From: Escherichia phage AV109
Length of the DNA: 64,000 nt
Sequence record: OR352939.1
Reading direction: 5' to 3' (one strand)
The position numbers were made by a program, and so were the translations under genes. The stretch's first letter is position 1. Every line of letters starts with the position of its first letter. Below are positions 1,180 to 61,319 of this stretch, in pieces. The notes beneath the pieces were generated by a model. That model worked only from the letters and a program-made list of their open reading frames with translations. It did not search any database and had not been told where the DNA came from.

Positions 1180-1452
1180 TTAGTTGTTAGAATACATCGC
1201 TAAATGACGATAAATATTTTCAAAACCTTCATTGAATTCACTAATCAGTGTTTTCTTTTCTTCGGCAGTTAAATTTGTAATTAGTTTTCTGAACGAATTC
1301 TGATTTAACTGCCGACCATCTTTTTTAATTCCAATCTCATTCAAGAATCCGATGAAACTTGCTCGGTCTTCAACAATATCTTCCCTAGAGAATTTAATCA
1401 AAATAGAAGCAATAGTAATAATTTCACGTACGATTTCAATGTCTTTATTCAT
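1180..1452 (-). CDS. asiA: Anti-sigma70 factor AsiA
   Basis: 90 aa; matches T4 AsiA along its length (REIIT.ASILIKFSREDIVE, FLNEIG, LNQNSFRK, EFNEGFE). Confidence 0.9.
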   Translation of the reverse strand: MNKDIEIVREIITIASILIKFSREDIVEDRASFIGFLNEIGIKKDGRQLNQNSFRKLITNLTAEEKKTLISEFNEGFENIYRHLAMYSNN

Positions 1453-5800: not shown

Positions 5801-6247
5801 TTAATAACTCTGCAGAATGAATTTAAAGTTATCAGCCAGAAGACGGTTCATTTCAGTGAGTGTTTGATATTCTGATGTATGGTTGCGAGTGAATGCCAGA
5901 GCCAATTGACCTTTACCGTAACCAGTGGTCAGTGGTTTCATGTTCTTAGCTGCAACAAAGATTACATCATATTCAATATTGTTAGTGCCCATGGTACGGG
6001 CTAGTTGCGAACGGCCTTGACGAATGTGAGAAAGAATTGCATCCAACCCTTGTTTAGAACGTTGACGTCCTACAAAGAATCGTGCTGCAACTTGACGCCA
6101 GTCGGATGAACCTTTAACAAAGAAGTAAAAACCTTCACGAGAACGAAACTCTTTAGAAACTTCAGAACCGTATTCACCATTACGAACTACTGCAACAACT
6201 TCACCGCCAACTGCCAGAAGGTCTTTACGAGTTAAATATTTGGACAT
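5801..6247 (-). CDS. ndd: Nucleoid disruption protein Ndd
   Basis: 148 aa; matches recalled T4 Ndd blocks ([61 protein letters not shown]). Confidence 0.8.
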
Positions 6248-6291
6248 GCTAATTTCCTCAATTGATTAATGTTTTTGTAATCCATGAGAGC

Positions 6292-6320
6292 ATTATACTC
6301 TGCTCTCAAGAGTTTGTACA
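6292..6320 (-). promoter_or_regulatory. Early promoter upstream of ndd (minus: TGTACA -35, N17, TATAAT -10); -10 embedded in dyad GAGAGCAGAGTATAATGCTCTC
   Basis: 35-bp element 6284..6318 is identical to 53192..53226; perfect TATAAT on minus strand. Confidence 0.5.
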
Positions 6321-6323
6321 ATT

Positions 6324-6524
6324 TTATTCGGCTATATCAGAACGTTCAAAAAGCTCTTCAACAGTTAAACATTCAGTGTCATCTTCAATAAAGAATCGAG
6401 TCCAACACGTTGGGGCGATACAGTTATGAGTTTGTCCGGCGATAGAAGCTACACGAATAAGCTGCTGACCATTATTCAGAACAAATTTTTCACCAATTTC
6501 AACATCTTTAAAAAGCTTAGCCAT
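6324..6524 (-). CDS. Hypothetical protein
   Basis: 66-aa ORF in minus-strand array. Confidence 0.4.
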   Translation of the reverse strand: MAKLFKDVEIGEKFVLNNGQQLIRVASIAGQTHNCIAPTCWTRFFIEDDTECLTVEELFERSDIAE

Positions 6525-6552: not shown

Positions 6553-6581
6553 ACTATACCATAATCCTACCTTGTTGTAAA
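6553..6581 (-). promoter_or_regulatory. Putative early promoter (GTTTAC -35; weak -10)
   Basis: gtaaac at 6576-6581 with conserved TAGGACTACTATA context; -10 hexamer less clear. Confidence 0.3.
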
Positions 6582-7064: not shown

Positions 7065-7094
7065 ACTATATCATAGTCCTACTTAGTTGTAAAC
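7065..7094 (-). promoter_or_regulatory. Putative early promoter (GTTTAC -35, TATAGT/ATATAG -10)
   Basis: gtaaac 7089-7094; conserved GATAGGACTACTATATCATAGTCC module. Confidence 0.4.
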
Positions 7095-7106: not shown

Positions 7107-7664
7107 TTAAAGATGAAGATACCACCCGTTGTAGTTGCTCTTGCGGACGATTTTCTTTAGGTCTTCATGGTCTCCCACGAACTTTATAGAATAAGAGAAG
7201 ACGTCAGGTGAGGTTTCTTTGACATCTAATATAATAATGCAATCTGCGACTCGATGGTTCAAGAAGGGCCCTATATTGATTCCATTACCACCAGGATAAT
7301 CACCACTGTATCCTGTGGTAACCGAAATCCATTTAGAATCTATCTGGTGCGTCTTGACTTCGACACGCAACCCGCAGTATTTAGGATGAGCTAACACGTC
7401 CCATGCATACGTGTACGGGTCTTCTACGTCTTCATTACCTTTATTAACATATCCATCTAGCCAATTTGCTACTACATACTCTGCAAAGACTGCAACCTTA
7501 CAACGTCGAACAACGTCTTCTTTTATTTGACCTGGATCTTGTTTCAACGAGTACCGAGCAGTGTCAGCAATCTTCACCTTCATTTCACTAGTCAAAAACT
7601 CATTCGACAGGATAAATGTCGGAAGATTCTTCAGCCTCAACAGCCCCAAGTTCGTCTTTACCAT
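7107..7664 (-). CDS. denB: Endonuclease IV DenB-like (position and size as T4 denB)
   Basis: Start placed at internal Met (MVKTNLGLL) with AGAGGT RBS, giving 185 aa as in T4; the track ORF 7107..7727 would overlap the upstream gene; assignment mainly by synteny between ndd and rIIB. Confidence 0.5.
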   Translation of the reverse strand: MVKTNLGLLRLKNLPTFILSNEFLTSEMKVKIADTARYSLKQDPGQIKEDVVRRCKVAVFAEYVVANWLDGYVNKGNEDVEDPYTYAWDVLAHPKYCGLRVEVKTHQIDSKWISVTTGYSGDYPGGNGINIGPFLNHRVADCIIILDVKETSPDVFSYSIKFVGDHEDLKKIVRKSNYNGWYLHL

Positions 7665-15872: not shown

Positions 15873-16293
15873 ATTTAAATTTAATTTTCTGAAGTGCATC
15901 AATTGCAGCCAAACGCCCTTGTTCACTTTTAACTGTAACGACCACATCGCCTGATACGATCACCGAACCATCAACAAATTCTATAGAGCCTTTTTTGAAA
16001 TCGACAGCTGTATCTGGTTCCGGAACTTCTTCAAAGAATTTAAATTCTGCACCATAAAGCAGAATATCACCTTGCATACTAATGATTGTACGTCCAGGTC
16101 CATCGGTTTCAGCGGCAATAATCGAAACGCCGTAACCAATCATCTCTTCCACAATAAAATCTTTGGACAATAAAGTAGTATGCAGATTAGTATTAAGACG
16201 TTTACCAGTCGTATTAAGAATTCTCAAGAAATTATCTTCCTGTCCTTTGATAATACGATATTTCTTACCAACTTCAAAACCTTTAAAAGCCAT
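15871..16293 (-). CDS. Hypothetical protein (39.1 position)
   Basis: 140-aa ORF; AAGGG RBS. Confidence 0.45.
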   Translation of the reverse strand: MAFKGFEVGKKYRIIKGQEDNFLRILNTTGKRLNTNLHTTLLSKDFIVEEMIGYGVSIIAAETDGPGRTIISMQGDILLYGAEFKFFEEVPEPDTAVDFKKGSIEFVDGSVIVSGDVVVTVKSEQGRLAAIDALQKIKFK

Positions 16294-18680: not shown

Positions 18681-18709
18681 ATTATACTCCATCCATCCTT
18701 GGATGTACA
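18681..18709 (-). promoter_or_regulatory. Early promoter (minus: TGTACA -35, N17, TATAAT -10)
   Basis: attatactcc...ccatccttgg(a/t)tgtaca module, also at 61291..61319; a second copy of the -35 segment follows at 18721-18737. Confidence 0.45.
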
Positions 18710-28591: not shown

Positions 28592-28621
28592 ACTATACTA
28601 TAGTCCATCTATAATGTAAAC
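28592..28621 (-). promoter_or_regulatory. Putative early promoter (GTTTAC -35)
   Basis: gtaaac 28616-28621; GATAGGACTACTATACTATAGTCC module. Confidence 0.4.
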
Positions 28622-52605: not shown

Positions 52606-52833
52606 TCATTCTATTTCCTTTGCTGCAAATAAGGCAGCATCCAACGAATCAAATTGGTCAACAAAATCAATATTTAACGCATCGTCAACCGTAGCATATA
52701 ACCACCATTGTTTGAATTCATATTCAAGAATAAATCCAGGCCCTTCAATCTGAGGAAGACCTAGGCTATTTGTACCAACTTCGTAACCAGCTAGACGGAG
52801 GTCATTAATCAAAGTTTCTGTTAATACGCTCAT
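52606..52833 (-). CDS. Hypothetical protein
   Basis: 75-aa ORF. Confidence 0.4.
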   Translation of the reverse strand: MSVLTETLINDLRLAGYEVGTNSLGLPQIEGPGFILEYEFKQWWLYATVDDALNIDFVDQFDSLDAALFAAKEIE

Positions 52834-53162
52834 TTTACCGCCTTAACAATTTTCAAGTCAACGAATTTTTTCTTACGTTGATTTTTCATACGACGGATAG
52901 TCTTTTCAGAGATTTCATGTTTCTGATAAGCTTTAGATTCAACACCAAATGCAGCAACGTCAAATTCAGAAAGAATATATTGTACTAGAATTTCACGAAT
53001 AGAATTACGTCCAATTTTCTGGTCGTGTTTTTGCATGATTTCATAAAGACGGAATTCCCACGCGTCAAGAACTTGAGGAGTAACAATATTGCCGGATTCC
53101 AGAAGAGCAACAACTTTATCGAAAGCGAAAGAATTAACTACGTTTTTGATTTTAGTAGACAT
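52830..53162 (-). CDS. Hypothetical protein
   Basis: Start at Met14 (MSTKIKNV) with GAGGAAA RBS; the track start at 53201 lies inside the promoter -10 element. Confidence 0.4.
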   Translation of the reverse strand: MSTKIKNVVNSFAFDKVVALLESGNIVTPQVLDAWEFRLYEIMQKHDQKIGRNSIREILVQYILSEFDVAAFGVESKAYQKHEISEKTIRRMKNQRKKKFVDLKIVKAVK

Positions 53163-53199
53163 ATTATTTTCCTCGGTTATTTTATTATCCAATGAGAGC

Positions 53200-53228
53200 A
53201 TTATACTCTGCTCTCAAGAGTTTGTAAA
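53200..53228 (-). promoter_or_regulatory. Early promoter (TTTACA -35, N17, TATAAT -10), second copy of the 35-bp element found before ndd
   Basis: 53192..53226 identical to 6284..6318; -10 inside dyad GAGAGCAGAGTATAATGCTCTC. Confidence 0.5.
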
Positions 53229-53231
53229 TCG

Positions 53232-53432
53232 TTATCCGAACTTTTTAGCGCCTTTCCAGCCTTCGTACATAACTGCACAAGTCAGTAGTACAGCGTGCTG
53301 GCATTCTTTGTATTTGTAAATCCAGAACCAGCGTAAGAAGTCTTCATCCTCAACGCCGTTGAGTTTCATATTGGCAAAGAATTCGGCACGTTCTTCACGA
53401 AGCTTTTGCGATAACATAGATTCAGGATTCAT
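53232..53432 (-). CDS. Hypothetical protein
   Basis: 66-aa ORF. Confidence 0.4.
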   Translation of the reverse strand: MNPESMLSQKLREERAEFFANMKLNGVEDEDFLRWFWIYKYKECQHAVLLTCAVMYEGWKGAKKFG

Positions 53433-61290: not shown

Positions 61291-61319
61291 ATTATACTCC
61301 AACCATCCTTGGTTGTACA
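61291..61319 (-). promoter_or_regulatory. Early promoter (TGTACA -35, N17, TATAAT -10)
   Basis: attatactccaaccatccttggttgtaca, same module as 18681..18709. Confidence 0.45.

Follow-up and report, generated by a model that had tools for sequence, protein, structure and literature searches.

PeSLs, early-promoter elements in which a promoter is combined with a stem-loop, have been defined for the phages RB49/phi1, PST/T4, and nt-1/KVP40 (Arbiol et al. 2010, PMC2839356; Comeau et al. 2014, PMC4122927). In the passages of these two papers that deal with the elements, the stem-loop of phi1/RB49 lies most often between the -35 and -10 hexamers or over the -10 hexamer, and it was proposed that the stem-loop ends upstream transcription and that cassette recombination shuffles small open reading frames (ORFs) and yields mini-circles (PMC2839356, PMC4122927). 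A second point of reference is motB, an early gene of T4. The 5' end originating from the motB promoter was seen by primer extension, and RegB cuts, both in vivo and in vitro, a GGAG sequence located 2 nt past the stem, which served as a model for an 11-nt consensus (Durand 2006, PMC1702504); the RegB/S1 consensus is GG*AG/U-RAYARAA (PMC1702504; Uzan & Miller 2010, PMC3014915). Cutting by RegB of GGAG/U followed by an A-rich tract has also been reported in RB69, a Mosigvirus. Here, we compare with these systems a 35-mer, ATGAGAGCATTATACTCTGCTCTCAAGAGTTTGTA, that is present twice in a 64,000-nt stretch of DNA from Escherichia phage AV109 (OR352939.1), which was analysed over its full length and is referred to below as the window.

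We consider it probable that each copy of the 35-mer represents a PeSL-type early-promoter cassette of ~70 bp, in which a promoter, a hairpin, a RegB/S1-type site, and a Shine-Dalgarno sequence with its ATG follow one another. The class of element is already known, and the Mosigvirus family described here adds to it, refining, not overturning, the PeSL picture.

Layout of the two cassettes

A search of the whole window located the 35-mer at 6284-6318 and 53192-53226 with 0 mismatches, and no further site was found in the window at up to 3, or even at up to 9, mismatches. The mean number of chance matches in 100 dinucleotide-preserving shuffles was 0. The two identical copies reported in a preliminary description of this DNA were confirmed. 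An alignment of the two loci revealed that the identity covers exactly 35 bp, with a differing neighbouring base on either side, and that both loci resume their likeness at GGAT when a 1-nt gap is allowed. All genes adjoining both copies are encoded on the minus strand, which reads TACAAACTCT-TGAGAGCA-GAGTATAA-TGCTCTCA-T across the 35-mer. Copy 1 has GAATAAAATTG and copy 2 has GGATAACGATT, both of which run into the end of the upstream ORF.

A consensus scan of the minus strand detected a promoter in each copy, TGTACA-N17-TATAAT in copy 1 (6320..6292, 10/12 positions) and TTTACA-N17-TATAAT in copy 2 (53228..53200, 11/12 positions). The -35 hexamers lie at 6315-6320, as also obtained by direct reading, and at 53223-53228, and the -10 hexamers at 6292-6297 and 53200-53205. 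Both copies possess the -35 GTTTAC(A/T)-like hexamer, the TATAAT -10 hexamer, and the 17-bp spacer of a T4-type early promoter; the PST/T4 early-promoter consensus, as given in the pertinent passages of the literature, is TTTACW-N17-TAYWAT. An extended -10 motif (TGn), typical for most T4 early promoters yet optional, is absent in both copies, in which positions -15 to -13 read GAG and the scan reported no TG. In either copy, the stop codon of the upstream ORF is located 3 nt before the -35 hexamer, and the distance to the Shine-Dalgarno sequence and ATG is 26-38 nt from +1, which was placed at the usual 7-nt distance from the -10 hexamer. The consensus, this position between a stop codon and the next Shine-Dalgarno/ATG, and the homology to T4 motB support the sigma-70-type promoter, T(G/T)TACA-N17-TATAAT, that had been proposed earlier.

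The inverted repeat is built from the spacer (-23 to -16) and the discriminator (-7 to +1), and its 7-bp dyad (GAGAGCA/TGCTCTC) becomes 8 bp once a T-A pair with the predicted +1 is included. In copy 1, the 5' arm TGAGAGCA occupies 6301-6308 in the promoter spacer (core GAGAGCA, 6301-6307; folding and covariation), the loop GAGTATAA 6293-6300, and the 3' arm TGCTCTCA 6285-6292, comprising the discriminator from -7 to -1 and the predicted +1 (A at 6285). In copy 2, the same elements were assigned by sequence and folding to 53209-53216, 53201-53208, and 53193-53200, respectively, with A 53193 as the predicted +1. The earlier statement that the -10 hexamer is located inside the dyad was borne out, as the loop contains five bases of TATAAT and the 3' arm starts with the sixth, its last T. 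Directly behind the hairpin, we found a RegB/S1-type site that the preliminary description had overlooked: GG*ATTACAAAA at 6273-6283 (+3 to +13) in copy 1, scoring 10/11 against GGA(G/U)RAYARAA, and GG*ATAATAAAA at 53180-53190 in copy 2, scoring 11/11 and identical to an 11-mer in the T4 55.2 leader. The cassettes end with the Shine-Dalgarno sequence GAGGAAA of ndd (6253-6259; ATG, 6245-6247) and with GAGGAAAA (53167-53174; ATG, 53160-53162).

The RNA hairpin of the 35-mer folds at -12.6 kcal/mol (z -4.9) with an 8-bp stem, and its pairing probability is 0.99 in the context of read-through RNA; folded as DNA, the hairpin has -7.2 kcal/mol on either strand. No stable sequestration of the Shine-Dalgarno sequence, either by the hairpin or by long-range pairing, was obtained by folding in either copy. 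A U-tract or T-run after the stem is absent from both window copies and from all 45 variants of the family described below, in which (A/G)(U/C)(U)GGA comes directly after the stem, and the dyad was not called by a consensus terminator scan on either strand of either copy. A reading as a plain intrinsic (Rho-independent) terminator was dropped because no T-run follows the stem and the scan made no call on either strand. A search of Rfam 15 gave no covariance-model match at E up to 1 in the 1.5-kb region around either copy.

Conservation of the hairpin and the adjoining RegB/S1-type site

A BLAST search with the 35-mer gave hits in 719 phage records. T4 contains one such place, 7182-7212, which is the promoter of its early gene motB (TTTACAAACTCTTGGGACCAGAGTATAATGGTCCCGTGGAG). 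To collect the family, IMG/VR and metagenome contigs were searched by a pattern in which the stem positions were masked. An 18-base pattern used for the metagenome scan was more productive than a second, looser pattern for IMG/VR, for which the matches listed were mostly chance occurrences that added few family members. Altogether, 45 distinct T4-type variants were recovered, ahead of seven different genes: motB, ndd, 55.2, and four ORFs with no known function. Among the variants there are 14 different stems, such as GAGAGCA/TGCTCTC, GGGACCA/TGGTCCC, GGGGTCA/TGACCCC, GAGGACA/TGTCCTC, and GGGAGTA/TACTCCC, all of them complementary, whereas no pairing is seen in unrelated sequences that fit the search pattern by chance. 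The 35-mer is one family of T4-like promoter-plus-hairpin cassettes. Single genomes hold two or three stems, and GAGAGCA, GAGAGA, and GGGAGCA versions occur together in OBCQ01000004. A single trans-acting factor that co-evolves with the stem, with one stem per genome, was likewise considered and rejected on account of genomes holding two or three stems.

In an alignment of 24 variants, 96.4% of the cells form standard pairs, compared with 35-56% after a shift of the partner by 1-3 columns. Both sides change in five of the eight stem pairs, a double change is found in 26 cells, and the covariation score was reached by none of 500 shuffles. These data show, at the level of sequence, that base pairing of the hairpin is under selection across phages. 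The 7-bp core gave 210 Watson-Crick pairs, 19 G·U pairs, 0 A·C pairs, and 2 others, and G·U states link the A-U and G-C forms at several core positions. Because a protein-binding palindrome or a cruciform should give A·C as often as G·T on any one strand, this pattern argues for an RNA helix on the gene strand, and we infer that the folded molecule is most likely RNA of the gene strand rather than DNA.

The RegB-motif region lay outside the search pattern, and it was found to be conserved in all variants. GGA(G/T) begins 2-3 nt past the stem in 45/45 variants and is followed by an A-rich tract, with at least 10/11 consensus positions in 32/45. The window sites, GGATTACAAAA in copy 1 (10/11) and GGATAATAAAA in copy 2 (11/11), belong to the 18 best matches on their strand of Escherichia phage AV114 (OR352944.1), the closest complete genome, most of the others being located at Shine-Dalgarno sequences (GGAGAAYAAAATG). 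Genome-wide enrichment of the RegB 11-mer in AV114 was not significant (18 observed versus 17.4 expected from shuffles at ≥10/11), so that it is the position of the motif and its conservation across variants, rather than the count, that carry the argument. AV114 encodes a 152-aa RegB outside the window (134816-135274; phrog_1323, E 1.5e-75; PDB 2HX6, E 1.4e-76) and also encodes PNK, and both window sites occupy an intergenic or leader position in predicted early transcripts. Judged from motif and position, they are likely RegB cutting sites. No genome-wide maps of the 5' or 3' ends of T4 or Mosigvirus transcripts were found in the literature searched.

The preliminary description had also missed how common -10 dyads are among the early promoters of this phage. 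AV114 contains 26 strong promoter matches with a ribosome-binding site and ATG, and 14 of the 26 have a -10 hairpin better than at least 95% of shuffles, in contrast to 1 of 14 control promoter matches that have no ribosome-binding site. Thirteen of 13 AV114 -10 hairpins are more stable in the sense than in the antisense orientation, with 18 versus 1 G·U pairs. Promoters that have no core hairpin tend to possess, just 5' of the -35 hexamer, a GC hairpin of the classical kind, in many cases with a T-run. As core and upstream hairpins are inversely related (Spearman rho -0.49, p 0.014), they appear to represent one function in alternative positions.

Promoter dyads of other types were observed at several sites. 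A second, more numerous family, TTTACA-N-TAGGACTATG-N-TATAGTAGTCCTA, with an extended -10 TG and the -10 hexamer partly in the 3' arm, is present on the minus strand of the window at 6553-6581, 7065-7093, and 28592-28620 and in AV114 at 131016, 142096, and 146388; its copies at 6581 and 7093 border small ORFs just upstream of ndd and form a tandem cassette array. The window motB promoter (18681-18709, minus strand) and a promoter at 61291-61319 (minus strand) share TGTACA-(T/A)CCAAGGATGG(A/T)TGGAGTATAAT, with a small hairpin between the -35 and -10 hexamers. Because its promoter is shared with that of the 61319 type, the window motB (18709) belongs to another cassette family than T4 motB.

Leaders of ndd from eight other genera, picked by the protein and not by the promoter, were examined for comparison. 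In the leader of the Dhakavirus IME08, a promoter is present, and a further type of stem surrounds its -10 hexamer. A promoter is lacking in those of Karam-, Marfa-, Tequatro- (PST), Winkler-, Jiaoda-, and Moonvirus, which still show a GC-rich hairpin in the same place. In 8/8 leaders, GGAG or GGAT with an A-rich run begins 1-6 nt past the hairpin, in keeping with the RegB/S1 target. Several ndd leaders of other genera have hairpins with a UUCG tetraloop, and the Winklervirus leaders read CGGACATTATACAATGTCCG-T-GGAGTATAAAAC, in which the post-hairpin sequence GGAGTATAAAA is the same as in T4 motB and the hairpins are unrelated.

Gene context and movement of the cassettes

The window is 99.76% identical to positions 64001-127974 of AV114 (Mosigvirus, RB69-like); across 64 kb, the two differ by 124 mismatches and 15 gap openings, including a net length difference of 27 bp between window positions 16001 and 20001. 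Copy 1 is located in a 76-nt gap between a 66-aa ORF (6324..6524, minus strand), whose stop codon lies 3 nt before the -35 hexamer and whose read-through RNA would include the hairpin, and ndd (5801..6247, minus strand; phrog_1102, E 1.8e-56), which encodes the nucleoid disruption protein. Copy 2 lies in a 69-nt gap between a second 66-aa ORF (53232..53432, minus strand), again with its stop codon 3 nt before the -35 hexamer, and a 110-aa homologue of T4 gp55.2 (52830..53162, minus strand; 75% identity to T4 gp55.2; phrog_1475). The two downstream genes are those that the preliminary description had given as ndd and the ORF 52830..53162. The gp55.2 homologue is followed by an ORF in the 55.1 position (52606-52833), so named by its position, and by the late sigma factor gp55. 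A mechanical ORF call and the AV114 annotation begin the 55.2 homologue at 53201 (123 aa), within the -10 hexamer and loop of copy 2. A start at 53162 (110 aa) is more likely, since a Shine-Dalgarno sequence is present there and both T4 gp55.2 and the annotation of the phage AlbertHofmann are in accord with it.

Copies of the 35-mer vary in number and place among relatives. Outside the window, AV114 has a third copy that differs at 4 positions, and Mosigvirus genomes have 3-4 copies each. At the position of copy 2, AlbertHofmann and many other Mosigviruses have a 79-aa ORF between two promoter-dyad cassettes, and the window has one cassette and no such ORF. In AlbertHofmann, this ORF has on its upstream side a different promoter with its -10 hexamer in a 12-bp stem, and on its downstream side a family member of the GAGAGA/TCTCTC type. 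The extra ORF, in the 112251-114450 piece of MZ501047.1 (~870-1180, gene strand), is phrog_11314, and its promoter, TGTACA-N17-TATTAT, is enclosed by the perfect 12-bp stem ACGATAGGAAGA/TCTTCCTATCGT.

Copy 2 of the window is itself a mosaic. It resembles the ndd copy in its stem and +1, but in its -35 hexamer and trailing GGATAAT it resembles the copy that other Mosigviruses have before a 197-aa gene. The 197-aa gene block is absent from AV114 save for an element of ~50 bp, and the fourth copy of WFbE185 lies in that missing block. Within the WFbE185 block (MK373778.1; 1208-1278, 995-1066, and 22-57), intergenic stretches of 30-65 bp match several intergenic sites of AV114 with 83-100% identity, which indicates, as far as sequence matches can, further repeated cassette families genome-wide. 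The ndd and motB copies of UViG_2706795408 (Dhakavirus-like) have 42 nt in common, and T4 55.2 has no promoter at the site homologous to copy 2. Since cassette indels, a mosaic copy, and shared stretches are observed, the 35-bp identity is best explained by family descent together with recombination or conversion. The preliminary description had put forward selection or recent copying as the cause of the identity; both apply, as the arms covary and copy 2 is a mosaic at the site of a cassette indel.

Proposed function, alternative explanations, and known systems

On the basis of the sequence and of its T4 homologue, each strong sigma-70 early promoter would be used by host RNA polymerase at once after infection. 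From the geometry of the locus, read-through RNA from the upstream ORF would fold the 8-bp hairpin with the -10 sequence in its loop, and RNA from the embedded promoter would have no hairpin, because that transcript starts at the last base of the hairpin. RegB would cut both the read-through and the promoter-proximal RNA at GG*A, as suggested by the motif, its position, and homology to proven sites. By the mechanism known from the literature, the downstream fragment with its 5'-OH would then enter PNK- and RNase G/E-dependent decay, while the hairpin left at the new 3' end may block the 3' exonucleases that the review literature lists among the consequences of RegB cutting, and so guard the upstream cistron. 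Attenuation of read-through by the hairpin, as proposed for PeSLs, may add to this, with no U-tract in its support. The identity of the copies would derive from common descent and recombination or gene conversion, and the same process would move small ORFs between cassettes.

Several points weigh against this interpretation. The asymmetry between G·U and A·C corresponds to ~5 independent events, on a gene strand that is somewhat G+T-rich, and compensatory changes in a palindrome can also come from template-switch correction of quasipalindromes without selection. The collection pattern fixed the spacer and loop, so that the variants carry no information on the conservation of these two parts. 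T4 GGAU sites are mostly resistant to RegB, with 2 of 30 intergenic ones being cut; one of the two is that of 55.2. The predicted unpaired probability of the GGA ranges from 0.11 to 0.75, depending on the copy and the transcript. For this phage, the +1, the activity of the promoter, and cutting by RegB are predictions, the role of the hairpin as a 3' barrier is one that we infer, and the terminator role published for PeSLs is doubtful here because the cassettes have no U-tract and received no terminator call.

Four other explanations of the dyad, and one speculative extension, were weighed against the proposed cassette function. According to one, the relevant structure is formed by DNA, in that a cruciform or a hairpin of the non-template strand tunes promoter melting or occupancy, maybe with promoter shut-off, or is the target of a structure-specific nuclease. 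The DNA fold of -7.2 kcal/mol on either strand and the frequency of -10 dyads (14/26 versus 1/14 controls) are consistent with this, as is the placement of one PeSL crossover in the loop, described in the passages concerned of Arbiol 2010 (PMC2839356). The strand asymmetry points the other way, since a cruciform needs pairing in both strands, whereas the cassettes show G·U without A·C and a sense fold that is always the more stable. The 5' arm is located upstream of the open-complex bubble, and hairpins remain at the homologous promoter-less site. Arms of 8 bp with an 8-nt loop are, moreover, poor cruciform formers. We regard this explanation as unlikely, and the strand bias also argues against the modulation of promoter melting suggested in the preliminary description, as does the promoter-less hairpin at the homologous site in six genera.

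It is equally improbable, in our estimate, that the dyad has no function and that the promoter alone is selected, with template-switch correction of quasipalindromes keeping the complementarity and gene conversion keeping the identity. Templated quasipalindrome mutation is well documented in T4, and the identical copies that recur at other pairs of loci in other genera, such as the 42 nt of ndd and motB in UViG_2706795408, attest to active homogenisation. Such a process does not predict exclusive G·U intermediates or the inverse relation between core and upstream hairpins, and it leaves unexplained both the fixed gap of 2-3 nt to the RegB motif and the retention of a hairpin in ndd leaders across nine genera with unrelated stems.

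There is little probability, too, that the stem-loop acts in the classical PeSL manner, as an intrinsic terminator or attenuator of upstream transcription with no link to RegB. The hairpin is stable, promoters without a core hairpin have hairpin-plus-T-run terminators just upstream, and one RB49 PeSL stem-loop lowered the expression of a downstream lacZ about as much as rrnB T1, as stated in the relevant part of the PeSL literature. None of the 45 variants has a U-tract, however, no terminator was called on either strand, and in the promoter-less genera ndd must be expressed by read-through over the equivalent hairpin, which argues against termination at this point.

A more speculative proposal extends to the early promoters as a class, about half of which have -10 dyads. 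As a part of the rapid early-promoter shut-off of T4-type phages, which has so far not been explained, a structure-specific factor or supercoil-driven extrusion might, once the first minutes of infection are over, trap the -10 sequence and silence the promoters as a class, so that the pairing is kept and the stem drifts; in a milder form, the hairpin and RegB site might serve as directional decay punctuation that insulates the upstream cistron from the decay that RegB triggers in the next one. Taken jointly, these two versions seem very unlikely. Least likely of all is the operator suggested in the preliminary description, in which a dimeric, sequence-specific repressor of phage or host binds the dyad over the -10 hexamer and turns the promoters off: the symmetric dyad has its centre at the -10 hexamer, and the shut-off of T4 early promoters is reported to be not understood in its mechanism, but the half-sites vary over 14 stems, with up to three within one genome as in OBCQ01000004, instead of being conserved, the arms change in a compensatory manner through G·U intermediates that keep them complementary, and promoter-less hairpins of unrelated sequence are found at the same position in other genera.

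These results have consequences for annotation and for the biology of these phages. Exact short repeats between T4-like early genes are to be read as promoter cassettes rather than as operators or the ends of mobile elements, and ORF calls that begin inside cassettes, such as that of the 123-aa 55.2 homologue, are probably wrong. Families of cassettes pass from gene to gene and become homogenised inside a genome. Because the RegB-type site always lies 2-3 nt behind the hairpin and promoter-less hairpins are found in the same place elsewhere, the hairpin and RegB site may be one post-transcriptional unit into which a promoter was fitted. If hairpins shield upstream cistrons from RegB decay, this would explain the individual expression windows of densely packed early genes. 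The cassettes could also be compact, portable regulatory parts for phage engineering.

Among known systems, bacterial promoter-coupled terminators (Fletcher et al., bioRxiv 2026, 10.64898/2026.08.19.745784) resemble the cassettes in that one DNA stretch provides the upstream 3' end and the next promoter, and tandem intergenic regions are thereby shortened. Their stem-loop lies on the -35 hexamer, with a T-tract just 5' of the -10 hexamer and termination ~10 bp before the start site, whereas the stem of the window cassettes brackets the -10 hexamer, stops at +1, and has no T-tract. In the T4 gene e leaders, as in the cassettes, read-through RNA has both arms and RNA from the internal promoter has no 5' arm, which gives two kinds of transcript of unlike structure (Uzan & Miller 2010, PMC3014915). 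The gene e hairpin hides the ribosome-binding site and its internal promoter is late, whereas in the cassettes the Shine-Dalgarno sequence lies free, 20-30 nt past the hairpin. A true analogue of gene e in the window is at 29932-29877 (minus strand), where TTTACT-N16-TATTAT has its -10 hexamer in the loop of a 14-bp hairpin, TTCTCCAGTAGTTG/CAACTACTGGAGAA, within an 80-nt leader that folds at -25 kcal/mol. The 3' arm of this hairpin holds a Shine-Dalgarno/RegB-type site, GGAGAACAAAA, right before the ATG. Read-through RNA would hide the Shine-Dalgarno sequence and RegB site and RNA from the embedded promoter would not, which amounts to a gene-e-like switch.

Like PeSLs, the window cassettes have a sigma-70-like promoter, a stable stem-loop over the -10 hexamer, and a placement between a stop codon and the next Shine-Dalgarno/ATG, and they show repeats and ORF indels between close relatives (3-4 copies, the 79-aa ORF, and the fourth copy). 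By the published descriptions, PeSLs are likewise concentrated near small ORFs and at indels, and the ndd region is among the published examples. By the same descriptions, the stems of RB49 consist of a G-tract and a C-tract, and the stem-loops of PST/T4 lie just upstream of the promoter, while the family described here comes from Mosigvirus and has no U-tract that would fit the role of a terminator or attenuator. Stem covariation, a gene-strand wobble bias, and an adjoining RegB motif were not found in the PeSL passages of PMC2839356 and PMC4122927.

The T4 55.2 leader, AAGGGCTTCGGCCTTTTT-GGATAATAAAA (1290-1345, minus strand, of the NC_000866 39500-44500 piece), occupies the position homologous to copy 2 and has a hairpin followed by the same 11-mer, GGAUAAUAAAA. 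It differs in its hairpin, AAGGGC-UUCG-GCCUUU with a U-run, which is located inside the 3' end of the 55.3 frame, and in having no promoter. The T4 motB promoter, TTTACAAACTCTTGGGACCAGAGTATAATGGTCCCGTGGAGTATAAAA, is a direct member of the family, which has the same spacer, the same loop, a complementary stem, and a GGAG 2 nt after it, and differs in the stem itself (GGGACCA/TGGTCCC), in GGAG instead of GGAU, and in the downstream gene.

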